Origin: Acidimicrobiia bacterium
GTDB taxonomy: Bacteria; Actinomycetota; Acidimicrobiia; Spongiisociales; JAENVV01
Direction: 5' to 3'
Assembly: GCA_041577335.1 (NCBI GenBank)
Contig: JBFGJH010000024.1
Location: forward strand, 1 to 40,171
Length of the DNA: 40,171 nucleotides
Made by a program: the position numbers and the translations under genes. Numbering within the stretch: position 1 is the stretch's first letter; every line of letters starts with the position of its first letter. The notes under the pieces were generated by a model that saw only the letters and a program-made list of their open reading frames with translations, had not been told where the DNA came from and did not search any database. Below are positions 8,978-26,235 of this stretch, in pieces.

Positions 8978-9610
8978 TCAGATCGATCGTCCGCCGAGAT
9001 GGAGCCGTTCGTAGAGCCGTTCGATGCTTTCCTCGGGTTGGGTGACGTCGAACCAAAACGACTTCATACCTACTGCCTCGGCGCCGGCACCGTTGCAATG
9101 CATGTCGTCTATGAACAGACACTCAGGAGGGGCTACGCCGAGGGCGTCAGCGGCTGCGAGATACGGTTCGGGAGCCGGTTTGCGCGCCCCGATCATCTTG
9201 ACGTCGATCACGGCGTCGAACCACTTGGCCGGCTCCCAGGTCTCCCACCAGTTCTCCCCTAGCCATTTGCTGGCGTCGTTGGTGAGCAACCCTTGACGGT
9301 AACCCTCGGCGGCGAGCCGTTCGATGGCTGCCCAGGTGGAGGGTCTCGATGAGTCGGTCCAATCGAGGTCCCCGGGTGGGTCGAACTCGATTCCATGGGA
9401 AGCGAGCGTCGCCACGACCGTGTCGAGGTATGCCGGCTCGGTGATCTCGCCCCGATCCATGGCCCAGTAGGCGGGATCGGGAACGGGGTGGGTGGGCCCG
9501 AGCGGCATCTGCTCGACCGGCCATCCTCTGCATCGGCCTACGTCGACGATCATCTCGGTGAAATAGCGGAACATGATGCCGCCCATGTCCCACACAACCA
9601 CCGGCGTCAT
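8978..9610 (-). CDS. HAD-superfamily hydrolase/phosphatase
   Basis: Motifs VVWDMGG, LLTND, RKP, FIDD; ATGA overlap with the upstream ferredoxin places the start at 9610. Confidence 0.85.
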   Translation of the reverse strand: MTPVVVWDMGGIMFRYFTEMIVDVGRCRGWPVEQMPLGPTHPVPDPAYWAMDRGEITEPAYLDTVVATLASHGIEFDPPGDLDWTDSSRPSTWAAIERLAAEGYRQGLLTNDASKWLGENWWETWEPAKWFDAVIDVKMIGARKPAPEPYLAAADALGVAPPECLFIDDMHCNGAGAEAVGMKSFWFDVTQPEESIERLYERLHLGGRSI

Positions 9611-9975
9611 GTGTGCTCCCGATTCCACTCCTCGGCATGCGCGAGCAGTTTCTCTCGCATCGACATCGGCGGCAGCGGATCCGGCACGTCGACAAAGATC
9701 TCGCCGTCGACGATTTCCACCCGGTAGGCCACCAAGGTTTCATCGGAGCCGACGTGTACGCCTCCCGGGAGCCGATACCGCCAGAAGTGCAACGGACAGG
9801 TGAGCACCCCATTCTTGAGGAACCCACCGGCCAGCGGCGATTCCTGGTGCAGGCAGCGGTTCTCGAACGCGACCACCTCGTCACCGACCCGTGCGACAAC
9901 GGCCGCGCCCGCCCCGGCGGAGATGCAGCGGTCGCGCGGCAGCTCCTCGACGGGGCCCGCCGAGACCCTCACCAT
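9607..9975 (-). CDS. Rieske [2Fe-2S] ferredoxin with C-terminal extension
   Basis: CLH...CPLH Rieske ligands, 122 aa. Confidence 0.9.
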   Translation of the reverse strand: MVRVSAGPVEELPRDRCISAGAGAAVVARVGDEVVAFENRCLHQESPLAGGFLKNGVLTCPLHFWRYRLPGGVHVGSDETLVAYRVEIVDGEIFVDVPDPLPPMSMREKLLAHAEEWNREHT

Positions 9976-9994
9976 CGGGAGGCGCCACGGGCCG

Positions 9995-11443
9995 TCATGA
10001 CAGCTTCATGACCACGGCTTTGCTCTCGGTGAAGAAGTCGTAGGAATACTCGCCCCCCTCGCGACCCATGCCCGAGTCCTTGTAGCCGCCGAAAGGCGCC
10101 CGCAGATCTCTCACGAAGAAGCAGTTGACCCACATGGTGCCCGTCTTCACCTCTCGGGCAACCTTGTGAGCTGTGTTGAGGTTCTGAGTCCACACCATCC
10201 CTGCCAGCCCGTAGCGTGACTCGTTGGCGATAGCGATTGCTTCGTCGACGGTGTCGAACGGCATCACCATCTCCACAGGGCCAAAAATCTCGTCTTGGCA
10301 CGCCCGCATCGAGTTGTCGGCATCGGCGAAGATCGTCGGGGCAACATAGTTGCCGGCGGCAAGAGCTCCTTCGGTGATTCGGTGCCCACCGGTCATCAGC
10401 TTGGCGCCTTCTTCTTGGGCGAGATCGATGTACGAGAGAACCTTCTCCATGTGCTCCGTGCTGACGAGGGGGCCAAGTTGGGTGGATGCGTCACGGGGGT
10501 CACCCACGACATAGGCCTCCGCTCCTTCCACCATGCGTGCCAGGAACTCCTCGTAGACCGAGCGTTGGACCAACAAACGGCTTCCCGCCAGGCACACCTC
10601 GCCTTGGTTCGTGAAGATCCCGCGCAAAGAACCGGCCACCGCTTCGTCCATGTCGGCGTCTTCACAGACGATGTTGGCCGACTTCCCGCCCATCTCGAAA
10701 GACAGTTTCTTGAGGCCGCCGGCAGCATTCCGCATGATCGAACGACCGGTATTCGACTCGCCGGTAAACGTGACCGCGTCGACCTCGGGATGGGTGGTCA
10801 GTGCCTCCCCGGCGGCATCGGGACCAAAACCGTTGACGACGTTGAACACCCCCGGGGGCATGCCGGCCTCGGCGCATATCTCCGCGAGAATCGAAGCCGT
10901 GATGGGGGACTGTTCCGCCGGCTTGGCAACCACCGTGCACCCAAAGGCAAGGGCGGGCGTGGTCTTCCAGGTGAGCAGCATCATCGGGAAGTTCCAGGGA
11001 GAGATCGAGGCAACCACACCGAGCGGCTCGCGCAAGGTATAGGTGAGCACGCCATCCCACGGCTTCGGGTACGCGTGCGTACCAACTTGTTCGGCGTAAT
11101 CGGCGAAAAAGCGGAAGTTGTGGGCGGATCGGGGCATGTCTTTGGTTCGGGCCGCCGTAATGGTCTTGCCCATGTCGAGCGTCTCCCATTCGGCAAGCTC
11201 CTCGAGGCGCTGTTCGATGCCGTCTGCAACGCGATGCAGAATCTTCTTGCGTTCCGCCGGCGCCATCGCCGCCCAGGCTGGGAAGGCAGCCCGAGCAGCC
11301 TGCACGGCGCGGTCGGCGTCCTCAGCCGAGCCTTCCGCAACGGTGGCAATGGCTCGGTTGTCGATGGGGCTGATCGAGTCGAACGTTTTTCCATCGGCAG
11401 AGTCGACAAACTCGCCGCCGATGAAGTGCTGGACGTTCTTCAT
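9995..11443 (-). CDS. dmpC: 2-hydroxymuconic semialdehyde dehydrogenase (DmpC/XylG-like aldehyde dehydrogenase)
   Basis: ALDH motifs PWNFP, FTGE, FEMGGKS, GEVCLAGSR, EIFGP, RDLRAPFGG; meta-pathway context; AGGAGG RBS. Confidence 0.85.
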   Translation of the reverse strand: MKNVQHFIGGEFVDSADGKTFDSISPIDNRAIATVAEGSAEDADRAVQAARAAFPAWAAMAPAERKKILHRVADGIEQRLEELAEWETLDMGKTITAARTKDMPRSAHNFRFFADYAEQVGTHAYPKPWDGVLTYTLREPLGVVASISPWNFPMMLLTWKTTPALAFGCTVVAKPAEQSPITASILAEICAEAGMPPGVFNVVNGFGPDAAGEALTTHPEVDAVTFTGESNTGRSIMRNAAGGLKKLSFEMGGKSANIVCEDADMDEAVAGSLRGIFTNQGEVCLAGSRLLVQRSVYEEFLARMVEGAEAYVVGDPRDASTQLGPLVSTEHMEKVLSYIDLAQEEGAKLMTGGHRITEGALAAGNYVAPTIFADADNSMRACQDEIFGPVEMVMPFDTVDEAIAIANESRYGLAGMVWTQNLNTAHKVAREVKTGTMWVNCFFVRDLRAPFGGYKDSGMGREGGEYSYDFFTESKAVVMKLS

Positions 11444-11664
11444 TGTGAGCCTCCTTCTGCGCGAGCGCGGCGCTCGGCGCGAACGATGCGCATGGGTTTG
11501 CCACCAGCGCCGTACTGATGCTCCTTCATTTCGTTGACCATCACTCTGACGTTGTCGATGGGGTCGCCCAGACTCGTCGCAATGGCTTCCGAGACGGATT
11601 CGATCATCGACTCGATCTTCTCGGGCGAGCGGCCCTCCATCAAGTTGATATAGACAAGCGGCAT
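11440..11664 (-). CDS. dmpI: 4-oxalocrotonate (2-hydroxymuconate) tautomerase
   Basis: 74 aa, catalytic Pro-1 (MPLV..), EGRS, VRV motifs. Confidence 0.9.
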   Translation of the reverse strand: MPLVYINLMEGRSPEKIESMIESVSEAIATSLGDPIDNVRVMVNEMKEHQYGAGGKPMRIVRAERRARAEGGSQ

Positions 11665-11667
11665 TCG

Positions 11668-12435
11668 TCAGCTCCTCACTTTGAATTCACAAGTACCGAC
11701 ACGATCAATTTCCAAATACACATCTTGGCCATCCGCCAGGTCGACAGGCGCCGTCAGGCCCCCGCTGATAACGATGTCACCGGCCATCAGCGGGCGTTCA
11801 CTGCCGGAGACCGCTCGGGCCATCCACGCCACCGCCTCGGCCGGATGGTCTAACGCGGCGGCGCCGGCGGCAGTCATCACCGGGTCGCCATCCACCGAAA
11901 GCACCACACCCACGAGGTCGAGACGGTCGGTGGGGATATCCACCCAGTCACCGAGGACGAGTTGGCCGGACGACGAGTTGTCGGCGATGTTGTCAAGGGG
12001 GCCGAAACGGAAGCCGTCGAAGCGAGAGTCGACAATTTCCAAACACGGGGCCACGGCGACGGCGGCAGCCAGAACTTCGGACGCACCGGCGCCAGGGTCG
12101 TCGAGGTCGGCGCGGAGTTGGAAGGCGATCTCAGGCTCGACCTTGGGGTGGATGAGCTCGTCGAGTGATATCTGGCCCGATCGAGTCATGGCATCGGTGA
12201 GCCACCCATAGTTGGGCGTGGGCACGCCCATGGCGCGCTGCATGGCTTTGGAGGTGAAGCCGAGCTTGCCGCCGATGATCAGCTCACCGGCGGACAGTCT
12301 CATTTTGATCCCGGCCGCCTGGACCGCATACGCAGAGGAATGGCCGAAATCGGGCACACGGCCGGCGATCGGGGCAATGGTGGACCGCTCCATTCGAGCC
12401 CGATGGAGCTCGGCGGCGACGGCCTCTACCGACAC
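11668..12435 (-). CDS. FAH-family 2-oxopent-4-enoate hydratase / 4-oxalocrotonate decarboxylase paralog
   Basis: KLGFTSKAMQ, PKVEPEIAF, EIVDSR, ADNSS; GTG start at 12435 inferred from overlap with the upstream paralog. Confidence 0.8.
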   Translation of the reverse strand: MSVEAVAAELHRARMERSTIAPIAGRVPDFGHSSAYAVQAAGIKMRLSAGELIIGGKLGFTSKAMQRAMGVPTPNYGWLTDAMTRSGQISLDELIHPKVEPEIAFQLRADLDDPGAGASEVLAAAVAVAPCLEIVDSRFDGFRFGPLDNIADNSSSGQLVLGDWVDIPTDRLDLVGVVLSVDGDPVMTAAGAAALDHPAEAVAWMARAVSGSERPLMAGDIVISGGLTAPVDLADGQDVYLEIDRVGTCEFKVRS

Positions 12436-13190
12436 GTGACTTCTACCGTGCCGTAACGATCGAAAACGGCTCGAACCACGTCGCCCCGCTCCATCGGCAC
12501 AGCCGCTGTCCACGCCCCGGCAAGCACCAGCGAACCCGCCTCCAACGACCGGCCGCGCCGATGGAGCTTGCGTACGAACCAGGCCATGGCCTCGGCCGGG
12601 TCGCCCATCACGGCCGCGCCGGCCGCAGTGGCGATCACCTCACCGTTCTTCTCGAACACACATCCGGTGACGGAGAGGTCGCTTGTCAGCGGCATCGGCA
12701 CACCGATCACGTAGCCGCCGGCCGACGCATTGTCTGCGGTCACGTCAGCGAGAGAGAACTCGTACCCGGTGAATCGCGAATCGAGAATGTCAATGGCAGG
12801 CGCCACCGCCTCGGTTGCTTCCAGCACATCCCCCGCAGTCACGTCCGGACCGGCGAGGTCGGCTCCGGTGAAGAAGGCGATTTCCGGCTCGGCGCGTGGC
12901 TGAATGTACCGGTCTCGTGTGAAGTGACCTTGCCCTTCGCCACCTAGAAACATCGGTGCCGTCAGCCATCCATAGAGCGGCTCATCGACGTTCATCTGCT
13001 GCTGTTTGGCGACGCTGGTCAGGCCGAGCTTGGCTGCCACGATGGGGGAGCCGAGCTTGGCGAGAACTGCGTCTTGCACCTCGTACGCAGCGTCGACGGT
13101 GATGCCGAGATCTTTGGCGAAGGGAGTGGTCGCGGTTCTCTCGGAGGTGGCACGGAGGAGCCGTTCGGCCAGGTCGTCAATGTTCATCAT
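12426..13190 (-). CDS. dmpH: 4-oxalocrotonate decarboxylase-like (FAH family)
   Basis: KLGLTSVAKQQQM, PRAEPEIAF, DSRF, ADNAS; start 13190 or 13187. Confidence 0.75.
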   Translation of the reverse strand: MMNIDDLAERLLRATSERTATTPFAKDLGITVDAAYEVQDAVLAKLGSPIVAAKLGLTSVAKQQQMNVDEPLYGWLTAPMFLGGEGQGHFTRDRYIQPRAEPEIAFFTGADLAGPDVTAGDVLEATEAVAPAIDILDSRFTGYEFSLADVTADNASAGGYVIGVPMPLTSDLSVTGCVFEKNGEVIATAAGAAVMGDPAEAMAWFVRKLHRRGRSLEAGSLVLAGAWTAAVPMERGDVVRAVFDRYGTVEVTCR

Positions 13191-13229
13191 CAATGAACGT
13201 ACTCATGCACACCAGGGTCGTCTGGTGCC

Positions 13230-13246: not shown

Positions 13247-13273
13247 GGCGACCACGTGCTCCCTCGGCATGGC

Positions 13274-14032
13274 CTATCCACGAAGACCCAGCTGGCGAGA
13301 GGACTGGGCAGCGGCTTCCGAGACGGCCTGAATGACTTTGTGGAGGTCCTTGTCCATGCGTTCGGTCGGTCCGGCCACCGAAATCGACGCCACGACTCGG
13401 TCGAGTGGCCCGCGAATGGGGCCGGCGATGGACAAGACACCCAGCTCCGATTCACTGCGGTTCTCGGCGTAGCCGCGTCGTCGCACCTCGCGGAGCTGCT
13501 CTCGTAGGACCTTGATCGATGTCACCGTATGCTCAGTCTTCTTCTCCAGCTTCCACCCGTCGAGCAAGGCATCGAGCTCAACGGACGGGAGATGGGCGAG
13601 CAGGCATTTTCCTGTGGCCGTGGAATGGGCTGCGTTCCGCCTGCCTACCTCGAGGAACAGCCGGAGCCCATGGGGCGAATCCAGCCGCTCGACGTAGACG
13701 ACCTCGCGACGATCGAGCACCGCCACATGGACGGTTTCTCCCGTGCGGTTGCGGAGGATTTCCATCGGTGGGATCACCGCCTCGTGCAGGTCGAGCCTGC
13801 TGCCAACGGCAGATCCCAGGTCGTACATGGCGAGACCGAGCCGATACTTCCCCGTCGTCGGGTCTTGGGACAGCAACCCTTCCGCCGCCAGGGTCGACAG
13901 CAGGCGATGAGTCGAAGACTTCGACAGCTCGAGTTTGCGAGAAAGCTCGGAGACGCCGTACTCGCGGTTGCGAGCCGAAAACTGCTTGAGGATGCGGGCA
14001 GCATTGCGCACCGACGAGAGCTTCTCAGCCAT
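13274..14032 (-). CDS. IclR family transcriptional regulator
   Basis: N-terminal HTH (GVSELSRKLELSKSSTHRLL), GETVH, HSTATGK, RRRGYA..ESELGVLSIAGPI. Confidence 0.95.
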   Translation of the reverse strand: MAEKLSSVRNAARILKQFSARNREYGVSELSRKLELSKSSTHRLLSTLAAEGLLSQDPTTGKYRLGLAMYDLGSAVGSRLDLHEAVIPPMEILRNRTGETVHVAVLDRREVVYVERLDSPHGLRLFLEVGRRNAAHSTATGKCLLAHLPSVELDALLDGWKLEKKTEHTVTSIKVLREQLREVRRRGYAENRSESELGVLSIAGPIRGPLDRVVASISVAGPTERMDKDLHKVIQAVSEAAAQSSRQLGLRG

Positions 14033-14037
14033 GCCTA

Positions 14038-14724
14038 TCAGGCATCCTCTCCCCTCACCGCAACCAGGAGCGCCCGCCGCACGTCCCCCGTTGCGGCATC
14101 GGAGCCCAATCCCGTCACGGACTGTGCCCAAGGTGCGATCTCGCAAGCGAGAAGTCGGTGGGCGGTCTCCAAGCCGGCCAAGGCAGCACCCTCCATCTCG
14201 TCGACCAACCGCTCCCGACCCGGGGCGTGGGCCCGAATTGCGGCAAAGTCTCTGGCGACGGCAATGTGAGAGTTCGCCAGGCCGCCTCCGGCATGGCCGG
14301 CATGGTGGGCAGTGAGCTCTGATCCAGGCTGGACGACCAGGTGATAGAGATACGTGGTGACGCCCAGCGCATGGCGCACCTCATCGGTGGCCGGGCCTCC
14401 CCCTTCGTTGATGAGGCCGAGCTCGGGGAGCACGACGGGGTCAAAGAACCGCAGTGTCCACGCGATCCCGCCAACCCCACCCTCATGGGCTACCTCAGGG
14501 CCCTGTGGCTCGGAGAGCTGCTCGCGCGTGGCGAAGACGTGAAGGTTCTGTGCTCCTGCGGCAACCACTGTGAAGGGCTCGCCGGAGACGAGCGGCATGC
14601 GTCCCCGAACGGCCACCGACTGGAGTTGTGCCTGCGTCCAATAGGTCTCATGGACGGTGGCGACGTAGTCGGTCATCGCTTTTCGCATGTCTTCGGGACG
14701 CGGTTGTTCGGGTCGATCGGCCAC
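14038..14724 (-). CDS. Hypothetical protein co-oriented with iclR
   Basis: Open frame ending 5 nt before the iclR start; GTG 14724 preceded by TATCAT (leaderless); His cluster HHAGHAGGGLANSH. Confidence 0.75.
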   Translation of the reverse strand: MADRPEQPRPEDMRKAMTDYVATVHETYWTQAQLQSVAVRGRMPLVSGEPFTVVAAGAQNLHVFATREQLSEPQGPEVAHEGGVGGIAWTLRFFDPVVLPELGLINEGGGPATDEVRHALGVTTYLYHLVVQPGSELTAHHAGHAGGGLANSHIAVARDFAAIRAHAPGRERLVDEMEGAALAGLETAHRLLACEIAPWAQSVTGLGSDAATGDVRRALLVAVRGEDA

Positions 14725-14745: not shown

Positions 14746-14820
14746 GTTCCGCCATGGAGAACGCCTTCCCGTCAACCGGAACGCGACCGATCGCACATCG
14801 ACTGTTCCCCCATATGGAAC
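14746..14820. promoter_or_regulatory. Divergent promoter with three 17-bp GTTCC-N7-GGAAC-like sites (14746-14762, 14766-14782, 14804-14820)
   Basis: GTTCCGCCATGGAGAAC, TTCCCGTCAACCGGAAC, GTTCCCCCATATGGAAC read directly. Confidence 0.7.
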
Positions 14821-14860
14821 GATGGTCGGGACTGGCGCCGATCTCAACTATGTTCGCTTC

Positions 14861-15769
14861 ATGGGAATCCTCAGGCTCAGCCATGTCGACATCACCGTTC
14901 CTGATCTCGAGCTCGCTGCTGCGTATTACACCGAGGTCCTCGGCATGCTCGAGGTCGAGCGGAATCTCGACGAGGTCTACTTCAAGTGCTGGGACGAGGA
15001 GGATCATCATTCCCTGCGCGTTCGGTATGACCCACGCGTCGGCATCGATCATTTCTCATTCAAAGTCGAGACCGAGGACGACCTCGGCGCCTTGGAGCGC
15101 AGAGTGGAGGACTACGGATTCAGGGTGAGTCGGATCAGCAAGGGGCAAGAAGTAGGCCAGGGAGAGTCGATTCGTTTCGAGACGCCATCCGGTCATGTCA
15201 TGGAACTGGTCCATGACATCGAGCGGGTTGGCGGTCTGCTACCGAAAACGAATCCGCCACCGATACCGCACGATCTCAGGGGGATCGCGCCGCCGAGAAT
15301 GGACCACCTTCTCGTGACGGCCGAAGAGGTCGGCGAGGCGAGCAAGTTCTACATGGATGTGCTCGGGTTCCGCCTCACCGAACAGCTCCTCGACGGCGAC
15401 GGACAGCAGATCGGCACGTGGATGGAAAGGTCACATTCGCCTCACGACCTCGCCGTGGTGTCAGGCGTAAATGGCGGGCTCCACCACTTCGCGTTCTGGT
15501 TGGACGACTGGGACCACGTTCGCCAGGCGGCCGACATCCTCGCCTACAACGCCGTTCAGATCGACGTCGGCCCCACCCGGCACGGCATCACCCGCGGCAA
15601 CACCATCTACTTCTTCGACCCGATGGGAACCCGCAACGAAGTGTTTACCGGCGGCTACCGGCCCGACCCCGACTTCCCGACAATCACCTGGACCGAAGAC
15701 AACATCGGCAAGGCGATCTTCTACTACGAGGGCGAGCTCAACGAGCGCTTCATGAAGGTGCACACCTAG
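14861..15769 (+). CDS. xylE: Catechol 2,3-dioxygenase (copy 1)
   Basis: MGILRLSHV start, DHLL, HDLA, LHHFAF, PTRHGITRG.TIYFFDP.G.RNEVF; -10 TATGTT 6 nt before the ATG. Confidence 0.95.
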   Translation: MGILRLSHVDITVPDLELAAAYYTEVLGMLEVERNLDEVYFKCWDEEDHHSLRVRYDPRVGIDHFSFKVETEDDLGALERRVEDYGFRVSRISKGQEVGQGESIRFETPSGHVMELVHDIERVGGLLPKTNPPPIPHDLRGIAPPRMDHLLVTAEEVGEASKFYMDVLGFRLTEQLLDGDGQQIGTWMERSHSPHDLAVVSGVNGGLHHFAFWLDDWDHVRQAADILAYNAVQIDVGPTRHGITRGNTIYFFDPMGTRNEVFTGGYRPDPDFPTITWTEDNIGKAIFYYEGELNERFMKVHT

Positions 15770-15809: not shown

Positions 15810-17576
15810 TCAGTCGAGCTGGTAGACGCGGGTCCGACCGGCATCGACGACCTTCCTTGCCCACGGAGGCGGCTCATCGCTGAGAAGGCCCGCCAGAAAG
15901 CCCGCTTCGTTGTCGGCACTCCACGAATTCGAAATAGCCGTTGCGTCGCAGACCATCACGTAGTCCACTCCTAGCGCTTCAGCTCGTTGGCGGGCAACTC
16001 CTGGGTCGCTGGTGAGCAGCTCATATGAGGCGACGATGTTTCGGTAGGCACGGTGGTACGGAGGACTCAGAACGTCGTGTTCGGTGTGCACGAGGACATC
16101 CGGGCTGTAGTTCACCTCGACGACGACGAGACCCGGCTCGAGTGCGGCGAGTCGTGAGAGCAGGTCCTCGGTGACACAGGGCACCGGCGGCGAAGCCCCG
16201 CTTGCTTCGTTGCCTCCCAGTCGCTCACTAGCGAAGCCAAATAGGAACCCGGACAGGATCAACACCGCAACCGCGGCAGCCACGGCGCGAGCCGCGACCC
16301 ATGGGACCGCGTTGCGCAGTCGCGTGACCGCCACTCCAAGGGCCGGCGCAGCCAAAGCCTGAGCCAGAGGCACAACGCGAACCTGCCAGAGGGACAAGAC
16401 CAGCACAACGAGGAGGGGGGCGAGCCACGGGACCAATCCGAGGTTCCTCGACTTCCACGTCAGCCAGCCCAGATAAGCCAGACCGACGGTAGGGCCGATG
16501 AGCAGGCCGACCGCAGCCCAGGGCAGGGCGGTGGCATAGCTCACGAAGCCTTGGGCCTCGACGATGAGATCGAGCCAGATGGTGCCCACGATGTCGGGGT
16601 ATGCACCGTACGGCCCTGCGGCACAGGTTGGCGCCAGCGCCCCGAACCATGCAAACGCTCCTACGGCGAGGCCCGCCAGGCTCAACCAACGAGTTCGACG
16701 GGTCAGCGATGAGCCCCCTGCCAGCGCCAGACCGAGCGCGGGCAGCGCAATGAGCCCGAAGAAGCCGAGCGAAAACACATCACAATCGAGCGAGAGAATC
16801 CGCCCAGGCGGGCCGAACAAGACGTTCGAGCCGACCGCTGATGCCACGAGCGCGAATCCCAAAGCTCGGTAGGCAGGGCGGTTGCCTTCTCCGGCGACTC
16901 CCCACCGCACGCCGACTCCGGCAAGGATCGCCGCGATGGCGGGCAGCGTCTCCAAGCCAATCGTCAGCGACAACCCTCCGGCGACTCCGGCCGCCACGAG
17001 CGCGCCAGCCGAGGGCCAGGCAAGCACCAGTCGCAGCATCGCCAACAGCAAGACAACCTGGAGGCCGTGATGGTCGATCCGGCCAGGGCCCAACCGGCTC
17101 AGTGCCCCTGCACCGAACCCGAACACAACCATTGCATAGAGGCCGACGTCGACCTTCGGCGAGACCCAGCGGGCAATGGAGGAAATCAGCCACAAAGCCG
17201 CCAACAGGAGACCGAGGGGCACCACCAGCAAGGCAATCAACTCTGCCGAATCGCTGCCGACGAGTGGTCGGAAACTCGCCACGACACTCCCGAGGAGGGC
17301 GTCCATGTGGCGGCTCCAATGCATGTCGACGCCCCCCTGCCCCACCCGATCGAGCGTCAGGTCCCACCATCGCTGTCCGTCGAGCAACTCCCGCACTTGC
17401 ACGAGTCGAGTGGCGTCATCGGGGTCGGCGAACCGGCCCGCACGAAGGTCACCCCAGCTTCGAATGCCGGCGAAGAGCGCCAGCGTCGCCCAGACTACGA
17501 AGATTTCGATCCGCGCCCGCAGCCTCGAGACTCCGTGATCGTCCTGCGGTGTCCCCGAGCCGGGAGACTCAACCAT
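15810..17576 (-). CDS. Multi-pass membrane GT-C-like glycosyltransferase
   Basis: Many hydrophobic segments, first-loop DPDD, MHWSR, GRIDHH, soluble C-terminal domain; overlaps the GT2 gene end. Confidence 0.65.
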   Translation of the reverse strand: MVESPGSGTPQDDHGVSRLRARIEIFVVWATLALFAGIRSWGDLRAGRFADPDDATRLVQVRELLDGQRWWDLTLDRVGQGGVDMHWSRHMDALLGSVVASFRPLVGSDSAELIALLVVPLGLLLAALWLISSIARWVSPKVDVGLYAMVVFGFGAGALSRLGPGRIDHHGLQVVLLLAMLRLVLAWPSAGALVAAGVAGGLSLTIGLETLPAIAAILAGVGVRWGVAGEGNRPAYRALGFALVASAVGSNVLFGPPGRILSLDCDVFSLGFFGLIALPALGLALAGGSSLTRRTRWLSLAGLAVGAFAWFGALAPTCAAGPYGAYPDIVGTIWLDLIVEAQGFVSYATALPWAAVGLLIGPTVGLAYLGWLTWKSRNLGLVPWLAPLLVVLVLSLWQVRVVPLAQALAAPALGVAVTRLRNAVPWVAARAVAAAVAVLILSGFLFGFASERLGGNEASGASPPVPCVTEDLLSRLAALEPGLVVVEVNYSPDVLVHTEHDVLSPPYHRAYRNIVASYELLTSDPGVARQRAEALGVDYVMVCDATAISNSWSADNEAGFLAGLLSDEPPPWARKVVDAGRTRVYQLD

Positions 17577-18720: not shown

Positions 18721-18831
18721 GGGACATCCTCGAGGAGTCGACCACGAAAGGCTACCGTCGCGGCCGGCCGTTCCGACGAATTACCGTGCCCTCAAGCAGG
18801 ACGGCCGATGTGCCGACTTGGTAGGTAGAAC

Positions 18832-19431
18832 ATGAGTATCGCCGACACAATCCACGAGCGTTACCTCAGGGGTCGGCGCGCCCGAGTCCTCAGCGAGAGC
18901 ATCGCCGGCCTCATCCCACGGGATGCCCGAGTGCTCGACGTCGGGAGTGGTGACGGAGAGATCGCCCACCGGATCAACCTGCTGAGGCCCGACGTGACGG
19001 TCGAAGGAATCGACGTGCTCGTCCGCCCACGCACCGCCATACCGGTGACAGAGTTCGATGGGGACACCTTCCCCTTCGAGGCAGACACATTCGACACAAT
19101 CACGATTGTCGATGTTCTTCATCACACCGACAATCCTGTGCGCATTCTCCATGAAGCGCGCCGGATAGCTCGCACGTCGGTGGTCGTGAAAGACCATGTT
19201 CTGTGCGGCACGGGTGCCGGCCCTACCCTTCGCTTCATGGATCGAGTCGGCAACGAGCGCCACGGTGTTGTCTCGCCGTACAACTATCTCACGTACGCAG
19301 AGTGGGAATCGGCGTTCGACGAGGCAGACCTCTCGCTGAAATCGTGGGAAGACGACCTCGGTATCTATGCGTGGCCCGCCACCTTGCTGTTCGACCGGAA
19401 GCTCCACTTCACGGCAGCATTGGCGGTGTGA
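18832..19431 (+). CDS. Class I SAM-dependent methyltransferase
   Basis: VLDVGSGDG, PFEADTFD, VLHH. Confidence 0.9.
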   Translation: MSIADTIHERYLRGRRARVLSESIAGLIPRDARVLDVGSGDGEIAHRINLLRPDVTVEGIDVLVRPRTAIPVTEFDGDTFPFEADTFDTITIVDVLHHTDNPVRILHEARRIARTSVVVKDHVLCGTGAGPTLRFMDRVGNERHGVVSPYNYLTYAEWESAFDEADLSLKSWEDDLGIYAWPATLLFDRKLHFTAALAV

Positions 19432-19463
19432 TCAGCCGGTGCGCCTGAGCGGTCAGCAAGCGT

Positions 19464-19480
19464 GTTCCCGTATGTGGAAC
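19464..19480 (+). promoter_or_regulatory. Putative IclR-type operator GTTCCCGTATGTGGAAC
   Basis: Same palindrome and spacing (41 nt to ATG) as upstream of C23O copy 1; -10 TACATT at 19509-19514. Confidence 0.75.
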
Positions 19481-19521
19481 GGCGGTGCCGTCGGGTGCCT
19501 GTGGGCGGTACATTCATCTTC

Positions 19522-20433
19522 ATGGGAATCCTGCGGCTATCGCATGTTGAGATCCGAGTCCCGGACCTGGAATTGGCGACGGCCTATTACGCCGAGGTGG
19601 TCGGCCTCATCGAGACAGACCGTGAGGATGAGCGGGTCTTTTTCAAGGGGTGGGACGAACACCAGCATCACTCATTGATTCTCAGATACGCACCCACCTA
19701 CGGTCTCGATTCGATGGGATTCAAACTCGAATCAGAGACCGACCTCGGCACATTCCAAGACCGCCTCGAGGCGGCGGGGACCACCACGAAGCGGTTCTCG
19801 GCAGGAGAGCTTGGACCGGGATCCGGTCACACCGTGCGATTCGAGGCGCCGTCGGGACACACCACAGATCTTGTCTATGGCATGGCCCAGGTTGGCAATC
19901 TTCTTCCCCTGACCAACCCGCCGCCCGAGCCACAGGGATTGGTGGGAATCCACCCGCCTCGCATCGATCACATTTTCCTCATGTGCGAGGACGTCGATGG
20001 CATCACCTCGTTCTTCCAGGATGTACTCGACTTTCGCTTGACCGAGCAGATCATGGGCGACGACGGCTACCAGCTGTGCACATTCCTGGAACGGACGCAC
20101 ACGCCCCACGATGTGGCCTTCATCACGGGCCCCAACGGCGCCCTGCATCATTTCGCATACTGGCTGGACGACTGGAATCAGCTGAGGAACGCAGCCGACA
20201 TATGTTCCTATCACGGCGTTCGAATCGACTCCGGACCGACCCGTCACGGCGCAACCCGCGGACACGGTCTCTACTTCTTCGACCCCGCCGGCAATCGCAA
20301 TGAGGTTTACACGGGCGGCTACTGGGCGGACCCTGATCGAGAACCGGTGACCTGGACCGAAGCCGAGATGGGACGGGCCGTGTTCTATTACGAAGGTGTT
20401 GTCAACCAGCGGTTCCTCACGGAGCACTCGTGA
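19522..20433 (+). CDS. xylE: Catechol 2,3-dioxygenase (copy 2)
   Basis: MGILRLSHV, DHIF, HDVA, LHHFAY, PTRHGATRG..LYFFDPAGNRNEVY. Confidence 0.95.
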   Translation: MGILRLSHVEIRVPDLELATAYYAEVVGLIETDREDERVFFKGWDEHQHHSLILRYAPTYGLDSMGFKLESETDLGTFQDRLEAAGTTTKRFSAGELGPGSGHTVRFEAPSGHTTDLVYGMAQVGNLLPLTNPPPEPQGLVGIHPPRIDHIFLMCEDVDGITSFFQDVLDFRLTEQIMGDDGYQLCTFLERTHTPHDVAFITGPNGALHHFAYWLDDWNQLRNAADICSYHGVRIDSGPTRHGATRGHGLYFFDPAGNRNEVYTGGYWADPDREPVTWTEAEMGRAVFYYEGVVNQRFLTEHS

Positions 20434-21512
20434 CGACCGACGACGAGTCCGTGCCACCCGACGAGCGCAAAGAAGCCACGCTGCCGCGCACCGAGCGAGC
20501 CGATGAACCGGCGTACTTGCGCCGCTACCACCAGCGGCGAGAGGAGGCGGCGCTCGACACCGAGCGGTCCGACACCACCCCCCTGTACCTGCGCCAGTTC
20601 CGCCAGCGGCGAACCGAACCCGGACGCGTGGATGCCCCTCCACCTACCTGGGAGGGCCGTGGACTTCCCTACGCCCAGACGTTGTCGGAAGACAACCGCA
20701 ACAAAGAGATAAGCGCCCCGCCTCCGGCCCAGAAGAGCGTGGCGAACGACATCTACTTGATCCGCCACGGCGAAACCCAGGGTTACTCGAGCGAATCCGG
20801 GCTCACCCCGCTCGGGGCGTGGCAAGCACATACCTACGGCCGGACGTTGGCCAAGCGAGTGCGCAGTGGCGAGACGGTCGTGCTCAGGCACGCGGCCACC
20901 AATCGAGCCGGCGACACAGCAGGCCAAATCCATCGCGGGTTCGTCGACGGCCTGGCGATGTTCGACAAGGACCTCAAGGTCCACGAACCGGAGCCCATGG
21001 AAGAGTTCCGCAATTTCCGCGTGGCGACCCCGTCAGGTTTTCGTGATGTCACGGCAGCCTTCCGCGAGTATTACTCGACACTCGAGGAATTCGAACGAAC
21101 CAAGCTCGGCGACCGGCCCCTGTGGCTCGTCGATATCGACCGGTTCTGGAGGGTGCAGCAGGGTGGCGCCGACCCGATCACCCATTGGCTACAGATACCG
21201 ATGCTCCACTTCGAGCCCCCGGTGATGTGCGTTCGCCGCTTTTGGCTCGGCATCCAACGGCTTGCTGCCGAGTACCCAGAGTCGCGCTTGGTGATTCCCA
21301 CTCACTCTGGGCCGATCCGCGCGTTCGCGATTGCGGCCTTCGGCTACGACCCCGGCGAACCGTACAACCTCGAGCACGTTCGCGTGAAGCTCTTCGAAGG
21401 CGGAACCGAGGCTCTGGTCAGCTACCGAAATCGCGTCCAAGAGATCCATGTCCCCGCCGTCGACCATCTTCCAACGTGGTCTCCGTACGAAGAATGGAAA
21501 CCAACCGAATGA
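20430..21512 (+). CDS. Histidine phosphatase superfamily protein with N-terminal extension
   Basis: IYLIRHGET and distal THSGPIR; GTGA overlap with C23O-2. Confidence 0.85.
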   Translation: MTTDDESVPPDERKEATLPRTERADEPAYLRRYHQRREEAALDTERSDTTPLYLRQFRQRRTEPGRVDAPPPTWEGRGLPYAQTLSEDNRNKEISAPPPAQKSVANDIYLIRHGETQGYSSESGLTPLGAWQAHTYGRTLAKRVRSGETVVLRHAATNRAGDTAGQIHRGFVDGLAMFDKDLKVHEPEPMEEFRNFRVATPSGFRDVTAAFREYYSTLEEFERTKLGDRPLWLVDIDRFWRVQQGGADPITHWLQIPMLHFEPPVMCVRRFWLGIQRLAAEYPESRLVIPTHSGPIRAFAIAAFGYDPGEPYNLEHVRVKLFEGGTEALVSYRNRVQEIHVPAVDHLPTWSPYEEWKPTE

Positions 21513-21623: not shown

Positions 21624-22745
21624 ATGAGCGACGGAGCCAATCGATACATCGTTTGGTTCGATCAATACCGTGACGAGGACAAACCGCGTGTCGGCGGCAA
21701 ATGCTCCTCGCTCGGGGAACTGATTCGTGCCGAACTACCCGTTCCCCCCGGTTTTGCGGTCACCACCGATGCGTATCGAGATTGTATGGCGGCCAACAAC
21801 GTTGCCGATGACCTCACCGCCCACCTCGACGGGATCGACGCCTCCGATCTCACAAAGCTCCACACGGTGGGACACAAGCTCCGTGAATGCGTGCGCACGG
21901 CCACAATGTCCGAAGACATCCAAGAGGCCATTCGCGCGTCGTATCTCGAACTGTGCGACCAAACAGGGGTGCCCGACCTGCCGGTGGCGGTGCGGTCGAG
22001 CGCTACCGCGGAGGATCTCCCGGATGCCAGCTTCGCCGGTCAGCAGGACACCTACCTGTGGATTCACGGCGCCGACAATGTCGTCGAACGGGTCCGCCAA
22101 TGCTGGGCATCGCTGTTTACCGACCGTGCCATTGCCTACCGACACGAAACCGGGCACGACCACGAGGCGATCCACATGTCGGTGGCCGTGCAGATGATGG
22201 TCCAACCCAAGGCGGCCGGGGTCGCTTTCACGCTCAACCCCTCGGACGGAGACCGCAGCCAGATCGCCATCGATTCATCGTTCGGGTTTGGTGAGGCGGT
22301 GGTCTCAGGTGAAGTGACACCCGACAACTTCCTCGTCGACAAGGTGCTGCGCACGATCGTCCGCCGGACCATCTCCCCGAAGCACATCGAATATCGCCTG
22401 GATGGCAGTCGCGAGGTGATCAAGGCAGAGGTGGCCCCCGAGCGGCAAACCCAGCCTTCGTTGACCGATGACGAGGTGGTCGCCGTGGCACGGATGGCCA
22501 GGATCGCCGAAAAGCACTACGGATCGCCCCAAGATATCGAATGGGCCATCGACGAGAAGCTGGAGGCACCCAACAACGTCGTGCTCCTGCAAAGCCGGCC
22601 TGAGACCGTGTGGAGCCGGAAGGCTCGGCGCACTGTCGCGTCCGGCCGGAGCGACAACTTCATGGATTCAATCGTCTCAACCCTGGTTGCGCCGGTGCAC
22701 TCTCGACCAAGACAGCCGACGGTCGAGGAGCAGGGAGGGCAATGA
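21624..22745 (+). CDS. PEP-synthase N-terminal (ATP-binding) subunit; phenylphosphate synthase PpsB/CreI-like
   Basis: VGGK..SLGEL, VPPGF, VAVRSSATAEDLPDASFAGQQDTYL, GEAVVSG, PQDIEWA, LQSRPET; no His-swivel or PEP barrel; GAGG RBS. Confidence 0.88.
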   Translation: MSDGANRYIVWFDQYRDEDKPRVGGKCSSLGELIRAELPVPPGFAVTTDAYRDCMAANNVADDLTAHLDGIDASDLTKLHTVGHKLRECVRTATMSEDIQEAIRASYLELCDQTGVPDLPVAVRSSATAEDLPDASFAGQQDTYLWIHGADNVVERVRQCWASLFTDRAIAYRHETGHDHEAIHMSVAVQMMVQPKAAGVAFTLNPSDGDRSQIAIDSSFGFGEAVVSGEVTPDNFLVDKVLRTIVRRTISPKHIEYRLDGSREVIKAEVAPERQTQPSLTDDEVVAVARMARIAEKHYGSPQDIEWAIDEKLEAPNNVVLLQSRPETVWSRKARRTVASGRSDNFMDSIVSTLVAPVHSRPRQPTVEEQGGQ

Positions 22746-22828
22746 CCGGATCCATCTAGGACCATCGAGGCAGAAGGAGTCGTCCCACCGCGGACGACCA
22801 AGAGGCGGGAACGACCGGAGGAGCAACA

Positions 22829-24634
22829 TTGGAACGATTCGACAGCCCATTTGATATCGAGGCCCCGGAAGGTGCGGAAGGGTGGGAGGCTCTCTACACC
22901 TACTCGCTGCCTTTCTCAGAAGACCGCCGCGCCTACGAAGAAAGCGTCTTCTGGTTTCACGACGGCGTTCACTGGCCAGAAGTCCTGTCTCCCTGGGACG
23001 CCACGTTCTACGAATATGCGATTGCGTCGCTGAGCCAATACAACACGCGCCATGTGATGATTCCCCCGGCGTTGGGCATCGACTACCGAGTCCTCAACGG
23101 GTACGCATATCTCAGCCCTGTGCCGGTGATGGATCCCGCCGAGATCGAGAGCCGGGTCCCACTGTTCATGGAACGAGCCGGGTTCTACTTCATGAACTGG
23201 GACGACCTCTACGAGAAGTGGCTCGTCAAGATCAAGAACCTGATCGCCGAGATGGAGGCATTGAGCTTCGATCCACTCCCTGAGATGGAGGCCATCGAGG
23301 TCGTGACGGAGGGCCACGGTGAGGGCTCGGGACTCCATATCCAGGAGAACTATCGATCGCTCCTCAACTTAGGCTTGAAGCTGTGGCAGCACCATTTCGA
23401 GTTCCTCAACCTCGGATACGCGGCATACCTGGACTTCTTCGGTTTCTGCAAGGAGGCGTTCCCGAACATCCCGGACTTGGCGATCGCCAAGATGGTGGCC
23501 GGAGTGGAGGTCGATCTCTTCAAACCCGATGAGCATCTGCAGAGCCTCTCCCGCCTTGCGATCGAGAAAGGGCTCGATGGGCATTTCTCGAACGATGACC
23601 CGCAAGCCGTCATGGCCGGCATCAAGGCCTCGCCAGGTGGGGATGTGTGGATGGCGCAGTTCGAAGAGGCATCGCAACCGTGGTTCAACTTCTCCGATGG
23701 ATCGGGTTTCTATCACACCGATCGCATCTGGAACGAGAACCTCGAGATCCCGTTCGCATTCATCGCCAACTACATCGAGAAGATCAAGGGCGGAGCCGAC
23801 CCCTCCCGGCCCACCGAGGCGATCCGTGCCGAACGAGACCGCATCGTTTCCGAATACACCGACCTCTTGGCGTCGGACGAGGACCGCGAGGCATTCGCAG
23901 GGAAGCTAGGCCTTGCTCGTGTCGTCTTCCCCTATGTCGAGAACCACAACTTCTATGTAGAGCATTGGAGCCATTCGGTGCTGTGGCGCAAGATGCGCGA
24001 GCTCGGGGCAGTATTCGTGAAGGAGGGCTTCTTCACCGCAACCGACGACGTGTTCCTGCTCAAGCGCGACGAGGTGAACGAGGCCATCTGGGACATGTAC
24101 TCAGCGTGGTCGGTCGGCGCGTCCGCCCGGGGACCCGCGTACTGGCCGCGTGAGCTCGAACGTCGCAAAAGCATCCTCGAGGCCCTTCGTGCGTGGAACC
24201 CGCCCCCAGCATTGGGCGCCCCGCCCGAGGTCGTCACCGAGCCCTTCACGATCATGTTGTGGGGTATCACGTCCGACAGCATCGCGCAATGGCTGGGTGG
24301 CGCAGACGAGTCGGGCGGGTTGAAAGGCTTCGCCGCTTCTCCGGGCGTGGCCGAGGGGCCCGCCCGGGTCATTGCCACGGCCGCCGAGATCAACCAGGTG
24401 CAGGACGGTGAGATACTGGTGTCGCCGCTCACCGCGCCGTCGTGGGCTCCCATCTTCTCCAAGGTTGGTGCCACGGTGACCGATATCGGCGGCATGATGA
24501 GCCATGCGGCCATCGTCTGTCGTGAATACGGCTTGCCGGCCGTGACCGGAACGGCGTTTGGAACGAAGACCATCACAACCGGGATGATGATCCGGGTCGA
24601 CGGCAACGAAGGAACAGTGACGATTCTGGATTGA
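22829..24634 (+). CDS. PEP-utilising enzyme subunit with C-terminal phospho-His swivel; phenylphosphate synthase PpsA/CreH-like
   Basis: 601 aa, helical N-region, C-terminal GFAASPG..EG, TAPSW, GGMMSHAAIVCREYG; TTG start behind GGAGGAG. Confidence 0.88.
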   Translation: MERFDSPFDIEAPEGAEGWEALYTYSLPFSEDRRAYEESVFWFHDGVHWPEVLSPWDATFYEYAIASLSQYNTRHVMIPPALGIDYRVLNGYAYLSPVPVMDPAEIESRVPLFMERAGFYFMNWDDLYEKWLVKIKNLIAEMEALSFDPLPEMEAIEVVTEGHGEGSGLHIQENYRSLLNLGLKLWQHHFEFLNLGYAAYLDFFGFCKEAFPNIPDLAIAKMVAGVEVDLFKPDEHLQSLSRLAIEKGLDGHFSNDDPQAVMAGIKASPGGDVWMAQFEEASQPWFNFSDGSGFYHTDRIWNENLEIPFAFIANYIEKIKGGADPSRPTEAIRAERDRIVSEYTDLLASDEDREAFAGKLGLARVVFPYVENHNFYVEHWSHSVLWRKMRELGAVFVKEGFFTATDDVFLLKRDEVNEAIWDMYSAWSVGASARGPAYWPRELERRKSILEALRAWNPPPALGAPPEVVTEPFTIMLWGITSDSIAQWLGGADESGGLKGFAASPGVAEGPARVIATAAEINQVQDGEILVSPLTAPSWAPIFSKVGATVTDIGGMMSHAAIVCREYGLPAVTGTAFGTKTITTGMMIRVDGNEGTVTILD

Positions 24635-24647
24635 CAGCTACCAGCTT

Positions 24648-24672
24648 CCAGCCCCTCGGATAGGGGGGCTGG
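24648..24672 (+). other. GC-rich intergenic hairpin
   Basis: CCAGCCCCTC-GGATA-GGGGGGCTGG between kinase and oxygenase genes, no U-tract. Confidence 0.5.
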
Positions 24673-24716
24673 GGGAAGAGAGCTGAAGCCAGGCGGCCAA
24701 CGAATAGAGGTAGCGC

Positions 24717-25961
24717 ATGCTGAGCAAAGAACAGAACGAACAACTCACACGGGTGGGACCCGGCACCTCCATGGGAACACTCCTCCGCCACTATTGGTAC
24801 CCGGTTGCCTTTTCCAAGGACCTCGAAGGGTTTCCCGTGAAGAAGGTCAGGTTGTTGGGCGAGGACTTTGCCCTTTACAAGATGGCGAACGGCGAATACG
24901 GCATCATCCAAGAGGCCTGTCCTCACCGTCGGGCGTCTCTGGTCTACGGCGTCGTCGAAGAGGACGGTATCCGCTGTGGCTACCACGGTTGGTGCTTCGA
25001 CACCGAGGGCAATTGTGTCGATCAGCCCGCCGAGCCCGACAAATCGACGTTCAAGAACAAGATCCAGGCGTTCGCCGGCTCGGCGCAAGAGATGGGCGGC
25101 ATGATCTGGGCATACATCGGTGAGCAGCCCGCTCCCGAGCTGCCCCGGTTCGATGTGTTCGTGATGGACGGTATCCGTGACGTTGGCCATGCCACGCTCC
25201 CCTGCAACTGGCTGCAGATCATGGAGAACTCGGTCGACCCCCATCATGTCGAATTCCTACACGGCCGCTACTTCGAGTTCTTGGGCAACAAGAAGGGCTT
25301 CGAGGCTCCCAAGGCGTTCCAAAAGAAGCACGTGAAAGTGGGGTTTGATTCGTTCGAATACGGCATCCTCAAGCGGAGGGTCCTGGAGGGCCAATCCGAG
25401 GCGAACGACGACTGGGCCGTTGGGCACCCTCTCGTTTTCCCATACTGCATGAGGGTTGGCGGGGGCGGAATCGACCAGATGCAGATCCGCGTGCCGATCG
25501 ACGACACCACCACCTGGGCCCTCTTCTACTCCACGCACAACAGCGACCAAGCCGGCGACTACCCCGACCAAGGGCTCACCGACTATGAGTACCAGTGGCG
25601 GGATGCCGACGGCAACCACATCGTCGACTACATCGAAGGCCAGGACGTGATGGCGTGGGTTTCTCAAGGGCCGATCACCGACCGCTCGTCCGAGCACATA
25701 GGGAAGTCGGACATCGGAATCGTGATGCTCCGCAGGATGTTCAAAGAGGCGCTTGCCGCAGTCGAAGCAGGTGAGGATCCCATCGGCGTTGTGCGCGAGC
25801 CACACGATCGGATCGATCTGCCGTGTGAGAAGGACAAGTTCGGTGCCGGCGCCGAGTTCCCCCTCGCCTGGATCAACATGGGCTCGATGCGCTACTCGCC
25901 GATCAAGGACCAGCTGGAGCGGTTCCACGAGGACGTCGCCAAGGCGGCGGCCAGTGCCTGA
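24717..25961 (+). CDS. Rieske non-heme iron oxygenase alpha subunit, LigXa/phthalate-dioxygenase-like clade
   Basis: MLSKEQNEQLTRVGPGTSMG.LLR.YW, CPH..CGYH, PCNWLQ.MENSVDPHH..FLH, RVPIDD, QD..AW..QG.I.DR. Confidence 0.92.
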   Translation: MLSKEQNEQLTRVGPGTSMGTLLRHYWYPVAFSKDLEGFPVKKVRLLGEDFALYKMANGEYGIIQEACPHRRASLVYGVVEEDGIRCGYHGWCFDTEGNCVDQPAEPDKSTFKNKIQAFAGSAQEMGGMIWAYIGEQPAPELPRFDVFVMDGIRDVGHATLPCNWLQIMENSVDPHHVEFLHGRYFEFLGNKKGFEAPKAFQKKHVKVGFDSFEYGILKRRVLEGQSEANDDWAVGHPLVFPYCMRVGGGGIDQMQIRVPIDDTTTWALFYSTHNSDQAGDYPDQGLTDYEYQWRDADGNHIVDYIEGQDVMAWVSQGPITDRSSEHIGKSDIGIVMLRRMFKEALAAVEAGEDPIGVVREPHDRIDLPCEKDKFGAGAEFPLAWINMGSMRYSPIKDQLERFHEDVAKAAASA

Positions 25962-26235
25962 CGAGCGCCCCTTGAGGGCGGTTCCCGATCTGCGGGGCCC
26001 CCAGCATCGGATAACCGGCGATCATTGGTGGGACCAGGATCGGATTGCCCACCTGGCCGATCGGCCCCGCCATTGCCCGTCGTGCGGGGTGGCGCTGGAC
26101 ATCGATCACGGCATCTCGGTCGAATACTGGGAGGGCGACAACCGGGTGTATCACACCTGGTGTAAGGAATGCGGGTGGACCGGCGACATCATCCGTATCC
26201 GCCGCATGGTCGGCCATGAGCCCGAGGACCACTGA
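25954..26235 (+). CDS. Small Zn-ribbon-like protein (93 aa)
   Basis: GTG overlaps the oxygenase stop (GTGCCTGA); CPSC...CKEC. Confidence 0.75.
   Translation: MPDERPLRAVPDLRGPQHRITGDHWWDQDRIAHLADRPRHCPSCGVALDIDHGISVEYWEGDNRVYHTWCKECGWTGDIIRIRRMVGHEPEDH

Follow-up and report, generated by a model that had tools for sequence, protein, structure and literature searches.

A conserved actinobacterial gene cluster joining a predicted phenolic dikinase to a Rieske oxygenase and two catechol 2,3-dioxygenases

Comparison with described systems

The Cre 4-cresol pathway of Corynebacterium glutamicum phosphorylates, oxidises and dephosphorylates its substrate under air, with a two-subunit kinase and an IclR regulator; it reportedly proceeds by methyl-group oxidation, and its phosphohydrolase is said to be CreD. 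Here we describe a 40,171-nucleotide stretch of an Acidimicrobiia genome (GCA_041577335.1, contig JBFGJH010000024.1, positions 1 to 40,171; hereafter the window) in which a kinase pair of the same family is encoded directly upstream of a Rieske oxygenase, in a cluster that also encodes an IclR regulator. Cre, however, has a P450 system, a short-chain dehydrogenase/reductase (SDR), an aldehyde dehydrogenase and HD-domain proteins, where the window has the Rieske enzyme, histidine and HAD phosphatases and two catechol 2,3-dioxygenases (C23Os). The hallmark of Cre, a P450 with ferredoxin and reductase, is absent from the 26 window open reading frames (ORFs) that were scanned against Pfam and NCBIfam.

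Other described systems resemble parts of the cluster. HpeHI/AcvAB and PpsAB share the kinase architecture and its His motif, but are followed by carboxylases (PMC12167813, PMC9618137, bioRxiv 10.1101/2022.04.28.489975); these are present in the reference Hpe and Pps loci, and no carboxylase was found among the window ORFs or the recurrent ORF clusters examined in related loci. In Ensifer adhaerens HP1, a CreHI-like pair (orf9/orf10) is essential for hydroxylation of the 3-hydroxypyridine ring to a diol together with HpdA, but this system involves a molybdenum-type dehydrogenase and no Rieske enzyme, and its phosphorylated intermediate went undetected (bioRxiv 10.1101/2020.01.08.898148). Aniline dioxygenase (AtdA1-A5/NpaA1-A5) follows a similar logic: ATP-dependent conjugation makes the true Rieske substrate, catechol is reached with no diol dehydrogenase, and the first step is undone by a hydrolase (PMC11335346). 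It differs in placing a glutamyl tag on the amine with an enzyme resembling glutamine synthetase (GS-like) and in having two types of oxygenase subunit (PMC11335346), whereas the window encodes one type and the proposed tag would be phosphate; no GS-like synthetase, glutamine-amidotransferase-like (GAT-like) hydrolase or alpha/beta oxygenase is found among the 26 scanned ORFs. Phthalate 4,5-dioxygenase and isophthalate dioxygenase (7FJL and 9INA; PMC8649396, PMC12445078) share the Rieske and mononuclear-iron ligands and act on aromatic anions. Unlike in the phthalate systems, Arg207 and Arg244 have no match in the alignment and the cluster lacks a dihydrodiol dehydrogenase and a decarboxylase of that type; loci of the present kind often lack a cognate reductase.

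The logic of activation, oxidation and release is already known, from CreHI with its P450, from the 3-hydroxypyridine hydroxylase and from aniline dioxygenase. Judged by its genes, the cluster belongs to none of these three pathways, and only its kinase has the sequence features that define its family. An initial annotation of the window knew of no characterised pathway that combines such a kinase with a Rieske oxygenase and an extradiol dioxygenase; in keeping with this, we found no published description within a literature coverage that was incomplete. The available portions of PMC13599478 mention neither kinase nor phosphoryl, those of PMC10470539 mention no kinase, Rieske or phosphatase, and those of PMC5209329 hold nothing relevant.

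Linkage of kinase and oxygenase across genomes

The kinase subunits are encoded separately on adjoining plus-strand genes: an ATP-grasp (PPDK_N) subunit of the CreI/HpeI/PpsB type (21624..22745, +; PF01326, E 4e-116), and a substrate-binding and phospho-His (swivel) subunit of the CreH/HpeH/PpsA type (22829..24634, +; PF00391; NF006150, the PRK08296 family, 829 bits against a cut-off of 650 bits). Phenolic kinases are described as having a T/SxxGGxxxH motif, with Met in place of the regulatory Thr two positions before the His (PMC12167813); the phospho-His subunit reads TDIGGMMSH around His559 and conforms to this motif, including the Met. Identity to plasmid homologues, which were labelled by gene context and are not the characterised proteins, is 52.6% for the Cre type (from a cluster on Rhodococcus ruber plasmid NZ_CP129900), 50.2% for the Pps type and 44.9% for the Hpe type, in line with the full-length identity of about 45% or more expected within the family. 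By these sequence features the pair falls among the CreHI/HpeHI/PpsAB two-component phenolic dikinases. It is followed by a single-subunit Rieske oxygenase (24717..25961, +; PF00355 and PF19301), whose best solved relatives are 7FJL (E 3e-52) and 9INA (E 3e-44), and by a 93-residue zinc-ribbon-like mini-protein with four Cys (Cys4 protein; 25954..26235, +), and is preceded by a histidine phosphatase (20430..21512, +; PF00300, E 2.4e-10) with an RHG motif and its second His in THSGP.

To survey these genes elsewhere, an alignment of 25 oxygenases was used and retrieved at least 587 relatives from a species-level genome collection; the best 80, fetched with the Rieske oxygenase alone, are the closest and hence a related set. 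All 80 loci encode the phospho-His subunit, 78 the Cys4 protein, 68 the ATP-grasp subunit, 67 the histidine phosphatase and 64 a C23O. Less constant are an orphan protein (56), IclR (54), HAD (46, in variable positions), a PDR/VanB-like reductase (23), a ferredoxin (20) and a hydrolase (12). Counting only loci whose contigs reach far enough to show the gene, the kinase lies directly upstream of the oxygenase in 76 of 79, the exceptions being a swapped order, an insertion and a kinase 9 kb away; the corresponding figures are 66/68 for the ATP-grasp subunit, 63/64 for the histidine phosphatase and 77/77 for the Cys4 gene. In some loci a second kinase gene, often with HAD, lies a few kilobases downstream of the operon (L142, L048, L162), and others hold extra PPDK_N/PEP-utiliser genes (L025, L026, L031).

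Starting from the kinase gives the same linkage. Kinase and oxygenase were each used to search one set of 400 sampled Actinomycetota genomes. Kinase matches numbered 31, spread over 25 genomes: every one of the 13 at 60% identity or more (63-75%) adjoins the oxygenase, versus none of the 18 at 41-56%, two of which are second copies 2-3 kb from an operon. (One of these 18, also a row of the kinase tree, comes from the unpublished genome G126, on which no conclusion rests.) The 13 carriers span six families. The oxygenase was found in 15 genomes, namely those 13, G046 (discussed below) and G306, whose oxygenase (51%) contains one stop and which yielded no kinase match. The neighbourhood check proposed with the initial annotation was thus borne out in both directions (80/80 loci; 13/13 versus 0/18).

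A metagenome scan, queried with a divergent oxygenase and retaining 80 of 526 relatives, extends the survey. It held 46 oxygenases at least 58% identical to the window enzyme, one of them near-identical to the window and not independent; 40 have upstream DNA, and 36 of these show the kinase. Below 58%, a kinase occurs in 3/34, always of a divergent type, and phthalate-type dehydrogenase or decarboxylase genes in 7/34. Three plasmid relatives with 45-48% oxygenase identity likewise carry phthalate-type genes and no kinase, and the three phthalate-type dehydrogenase/decarboxylase markers are found in 1, 0 and 0 of the 80 core loci.

Two quick trees, both supported by the Shimodaira-Hasegawa-like approximate likelihood ratio test (SH-aLRT) only, bear on the link. 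In the kinase tree (63 rows, drawn from the kinase-search loci, from 25 of the 82 loci fetched with the oxygenase and from seven plasmid copies), the kinases linked to the oxygenase group in a single clade (38 rows, SH-aLRT 95) with a Cre-type kinase as sister (SH-aLRT 99), while locus L033 has a kinase from outside this main clade in the same slot. In the oxygenase tree (50 rows), a clade of 33 rows (SH-aLRT 95) comprises a main clade (26 rows, 99) and a sister clade (7 rows, 99). Three sister-clade oxygenases lie head to head with a third, two-subunit kinase type of about 580 residues and 27-29% identity (28.7% to the window's) that keeps the His motif (L208:5024-9233, L209:1442-5685, L213:45-3122), and such a divergent kinase also lies downstream of a main-clade oxygenase (L196:1978-4718). 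One oxygenase clade is thereby paired with three kinase lineages (the main clade, the L033 replacement and the divergent type), and this pairing argues better than any other observation for a functional link, over and above inherited gene order. Both trees are compatible with the proposed pathway, and the cluster itself holds up as genuine and highly conserved. As far as published values allow a comparison, the distance of the divergent kinase from phenol kinases resembles that of an aniline kinase.

Proposed chemistry and alternatives

The linkage from both sides and the two trees agree with a scheme already put forward in the initial annotation, in which a phenolic substrate is phosphorylated, oxidised by the Rieske enzyme, dephosphorylated and meta-cleaved; the O-demethylation that it also allowed gained no specific support. 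Very probably, the product of the kinase is the substrate of the oxygenase and the end product is a catechol. The particular chemistry that we prefer is held more tentatively, as possible and somewhat short of probable: a simple phenol would be phosphorylated, the aryl phosphate oxygenated on the ring, and the freed catechol meta-cleaved. We infer the substrate, the regiochemistry and the oxygenase's need for the phosphate from the sequences, and put them forward as proposals.

In this proposed IclR-controlled aerobic pathway, which would turn phenol or a small ring-substituted phenol into a catechol, the dikinase, assigned to its family by sequence, would form the aryl phosphate from ATP by way of His559. 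The Rieske oxygenase, whose family binds aromatic anions, would then oxygenate the ring beside the phosphate-bearing carbon, by monooxygenation or through a 2,3-cis-diol, and the histidine phosphatase would strip the phosphate to give catechol directly or after loss of water. The two C23Os and a dehydrogenase/tautomerase/decarboxylase branch, whose genes are present, would finish degradation, and the HAD enzyme probably serves as a relief valve. The phosphate would keep a phenol that is dilute and membrane-permeant from escaping, and would offer the oxygenase an anionic handle. HpeHI has a sub-micromolar KM and is described as a scavenging system (PMC12167813); by analogy, a comparable role here would make the ATP worth spending where phenol is scarce.

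A diol dehydrogenase is not part of the conserved core of the 80 loci, and none would be needed, because conversion of phenol to catechol takes only one net oxygen. Two courses would account for its absence: ortho-oxygenation with dephosphorylation afterwards, or attack at the phosphate-bearing carbon itself with loss of the phosphate. In the latter case, the oxygenase would add O2 across that carbon and its neighbour, the product would expel phosphate to give catechol, and the phosphatases would only keep aryl phosphate low, like the GAT-like enzyme of aniline dioxygenase. Leaving-group chemistry is known from phenoxybenzoate dioxygenase, and aniline dioxygenase turns its ATP-made conjugate straight into catechol with its hydrolase dispensable (PMC11335346). 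Nevertheless, the histidine phosphatase is nearly as constant as the kinase, and in three split operons (L188, L190, L157) it stays beside the C23O pair and does not follow the kinase. Because of these split operons we favour ortho-oxygenation with enzymatic dephosphorylation, and consider spontaneous phosphate loss unlikely, if well worth keeping in view.

The gene content downstream bears on the substrate. The window encodes the dehydrogenase branch but no hydrolase, a combination that in meta pathways goes with catechol or its 4-substituted forms. A Cre-like alternative, in which the oxygenase replaces the P450 and oxidises the methyl group of cresyl phosphate, would agree with the sister position of the Cre-type kinase and with haloarchaeal plasmids (below) that combine the same kinase family, another Rieske type and alcohol and aldehyde dehydrogenases. 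We nonetheless judge it very improbable, since the core contains no alcohol dehydrogenase (SDR in 3/80 loci) and its downstream genes serve catechol and not hydroxybenzoate or protocatechuate. Less probable still is an aromatic amine substrate, from which the kinase would make a phosphoramidate for oxygenation to catechol in a phosphate version of aniline dioxygenase. A PEP-synthase-like pair does phosphorylate aniline in Desulfatiglans anilini, but that enzyme is 27-28% identical to phenol kinases (PMC7500099), against 50-53% for the window kinase, and this idea would better suit the divergent kinase of L208, L209 and L213.

In the oxygenase, the CxH...CxxH ligands, 2-His-1-Asp iron site and bridging Asp, placed by alignment to 7FJL, are all present, and C68, H70, C87, H90, D174, H177, H182 and D310 are invariant in 81/81 rows. 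The enzyme also has a LigXa_C match and a weak VanA_C match, many homologues are automatically named DDVA O-demethylase, and the AcvAB substrate panel, whose 4-hydroxy compounds were mostly accepted, included guaiacol (bioRxiv 10.1101/2022.04.28.489975). A guaiacol-type 2-methoxyphenol whose phosphate ester is O-demethylated before the phosphatase frees catechol might account for these matches. However, the closest solved relatives are ring dioxygenases and no formaldehyde-handling gene occurs among the recurrent ORF clusters examined, and we regard this version as improbable.

Several points weigh against our preferred chemistry. The support consists of genes and sequences. A single family supplies eight of the 13 reciprocal cases; in G046 the oxygenase lies directly behind the phosphatase, and the one kinase detected lies on a different contig; and 4 of the 40 close metagenome oxygenases have no adjoining kinase (L164, L165, L205, L217; contigs of 1.7-4.2 kb). 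In phthalate dioxygenase, Arg207 and Arg244 bind the carboxylates (PMC8649396). These are unmatched here, aligning in a gapped region of the sequence alignment with Ala/Met197 and with Ala/Lys234 or Ile/Val235, so that an anion-binding site is not demonstrated. K219 aligns with the pocket residue Arg231 and Q256 with His257, and K219, H237, R246, Q254, Q256 and R258 are invariant in 81 rows; K219, H237, Q256 and R258 also occur in kinase-free relatives, and because K219 and Q256 do so a phosphate site is not shown either. As to the electron supply, a reductase is present in only 23/80 loci, no Reductase_C protein was found in this genome (91% complete), its only FAD_binding_6 protein is PaaE-like and sits in a phenylacetate operon, and its three full-length FAD_binding_3 proteins are uncharacterised.

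The undemonstrated anion site and the few close oxygenases without an adjoining kinase would also suit a looser arrangement, in which kinase and phosphatases merely trap or detoxify phenol or catechol, the oxygenase uses free substrate and the genes are only co-regulated; detoxification has been mentioned as a possible role of phosphorylation in the Hpe pathway (PMC9618137). We think this quite unlikely, as it is difficult to see why three unrelated kinase lineages should sit beside one oxygenase clade if no substrate linked them.

Returning to the phosphatase of the proposed third step, RHGETQGY and THSGP are conserved in a 66-row alignment, motifs that assign it by sequence to histidine phosphatase branch 1, and an N-terminal extension of about 100 residues (window 20430-20720) holds two conserved Y-L-R repeats. 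The Cys4 protein has C41, C44, C70 and C73 invariant in 54 rows and gives weak zinc-ribbon fold matches (Z 3.5), while its Atlas matches are unnamed clusters only; rubredoxin is not among the listed fold matches, though the protein may still be of that kind. Its gene follows the oxygenase at the kinase-free Peribacillus plasmid locus L104 and lies near it in L159 (G306), and because it is present at kinase-free loci too, we conclude that it travels with the oxygenase. The orphan protein (about 225-240 residues; 14038..14724, start approximate, -) has invariant His residues (H73, H139, H151, H155) and a confident structure model (predicted local distance difference test 94.6). Its members have no Pfam family in common and no usable Atlas match, and Foldseek gave no match at E 0.001; the best VIA match reached Z 5.4, over helices only. 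The orphan gene is absent from some loci (L091, L157, L161).

Neighbouring genes, regulation and implications

The plus-strand order of C23O, histidine phosphatase, kinase pair, Rieske oxygenase and zinc-ribbon protein had been named correctly in the initial annotation, as had the minus-strand operon running from 13190 down to 8978, but C23O1, the IclR and orphan genes and a 3.6-kb insertion had been omitted. The minus-strand operon comprises a decarboxylase/hydratase of the XylI/XylJ family (12426..13190; TIGR03218, 197 bits, below cut-off), a hydratase/decarboxylase of the XylJ/XylI family (11668..12435; TIGR03220, 207 bits, and TIGR03218, 196 bits, below cut-offs), a 4-oxalocrotonate tautomerase-like protein with N-terminal Pro in its translation (11440..11664; its L081 homologue matches NF002524/TIGR00013), a 2-hydroxymuconic semialdehyde dehydrogenase-like protein (9995..11443; 601 bits with TIGR03216 and 622 bits with TIGR02299, neither reaching its cut-off), a Rieske-type ferredoxin (9607..9975; PF00355) that is a candidate electron carrier for the oxygenase, and a HAD-family hydrolase with a D-x-G-G motif I (8978..9610; PF00702/PF13419), a candidate second phosphatase or relief valve for aryl phosphate. 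The IclR-family gene (PF01614 and PF09339) lies at 13274..14032 (-). Hydratase, acetaldehyde dehydrogenase and aldolase genes of the lower pathway are found on contig C35 (16727-19427).

Both C23Os, C23O1 (14861..15769, +; TIGR03211, 382.5 bits) and C23O2 (19522..20433, +; TIGR03211, 356.2 bits; best PDB match 1MPY, E 4.5e-73), exceed the curated cut-off of 320.2 bits and have intact metal-ligand and catalytic motifs in the alignment, which identifies them as predicted catechol 2,3-dioxygenases. The paralogues are 56% identical, and they adjoin in 56/57 relatives with room (gaps of 0-259 nt). In the window they are separated by a lineage-specific insertion outside the pathway (15810..19431), encoding a membrane protein, a GT2 glycosyltransferase and a methyltransferase, which is present in 0/80 genome loci and 0/80 metagenome loci. 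An assembly artefact was rejected: contigs from public sequencing runs span the left junction (X1, X2) and the right junction (X1), the latter in X1 alone among the pieces listed; X1 could itself be the sample from which the genome came.

The initial annotation had also pointed to an operator shared by both operons. Two copies of the palindrome GTTCC-N7-GGAAC do stand 57 and 58 nt before the C23O starts (14804..14820 and 19464..19480), but none stands separately before the lower meta genes; copy 1 lies in the divergent promoter region common to the leftward operon, and copy 2 precedes C23O2. With at most one mismatch and within 200 nt of C23O1, the motif recurs in 27/59 relatives, versus 29/2000 control stretches, and before C23O2 it was found at at most one mismatch in 0/56 relatives. 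A genome-wide regulon motif is unsupported, as the 7 copies observed against 4.2 expected are no enrichment. The IclR protein may bind this operator candidate. Each copy is followed, 6-7 nt ahead of the ATG, by a TAnnnT box, and the C23O1 start would be of the leaderless type. The stretch 19440-19525 repeats the operator and TAnnnT spacing of 14790-14865, as if the promoter had been copied when the block was inserted, and promoter-like DNA also precedes C23O2 in L045, L050 and L055. Between the kinase and oxygenase genes lies a G+C-rich hairpin without a U-run (24645..24675, +; z = -3.0 for 24630-24720).

In agreement with the initial annotation, no P450, carboxylase or hydroxylase of the di-iron or HpaB type was found among the 26 window ORFs scanned; a luciferase-like monooxygenase (30760-31599), however, is present, and has a counterpart in 0/80 genome loci. 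It was dropped as a pathway gene on this count, together with two SDRs and a PEP-mutase-like gene (0/80 each). An ORF cluster seen in 15 loci was set aside as a probable antisense shadow of the aldolase gene. The sole P450 of the genome lies on contig C53. The left end of the window (1-8296, -) is taken up by an open frame that spans no fewer than 2765 codons, holds many repeated Thr/Val/Asp/Ser-rich units and runs off the contig end; it looks like a giant surface protein.

Related kinases occur in other settings. Plasmids of Haladaptatus (L111:1416-10948) and Natrinema (L112:1819-10960) combine the same kinase family with a Rieske oxygenase of the alpha/beta type, a metallophosphoesterase and dehydrogenases for alcohols and aldehydes, which looks like a second kinase and Rieske module, independent of the first. 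A Thermomicrobium roseum plasmid (L109, 7986-16462) has the kinase pair near a xanthine-dehydrogenase-family molybdoenzyme, which recalls the 3-hydroxypyridine system, and on a Rhodococcus ruber plasmid (L106, 4059-17800) the Cre-type cluster adjoins a toluene monooxygenase operon, a neighbourhood that suggests passage from toluene through cresol to cresyl phosphate.

Public runs containing the window DNA are soil, marine and sediment metagenomes, with no RNA runs among those listed. The nearest named oxygenase relatives, among the matches listed, are Acidimicrobiia, and cultured carriers in public records are Nocardioides zhouii, N. litoris, N. baculatus and Blastococcus jejuensis. A di-iron hydroxylase was found in 1/16 and an HpaB-type enzyme in 2/16 oxygenase-carrying genomes, the present genome having neither.

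On balance, we lean towards an undescribed aerobic route from phenols to catechols that is widespread in Actinomycetota and dispenses with flavin and di-iron phenol hydroxylases, comprising an aryl-phosphate-specific Rieske clade, a Cys4 accessory, an orphan His-rich protein and an obligate C23O pair; the sister clade, paired with a far more divergent kinase, may act likewise on another class of substrate, such as aromatic amines. Screens for aerobic phenol degradation look for genes of flavin or di-iron hydroxylases. If the proposal is true, they miss a route found in 13 of the 400 genomes sampled from the phylum, across six families; most of the 16 genomes tested lack both canonical hydroxylases. 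Aryl phosphates would then join the substrates of Rieske oxygenases, with possible use in selective catechol synthesis and in the funnelling of lignin monomers.

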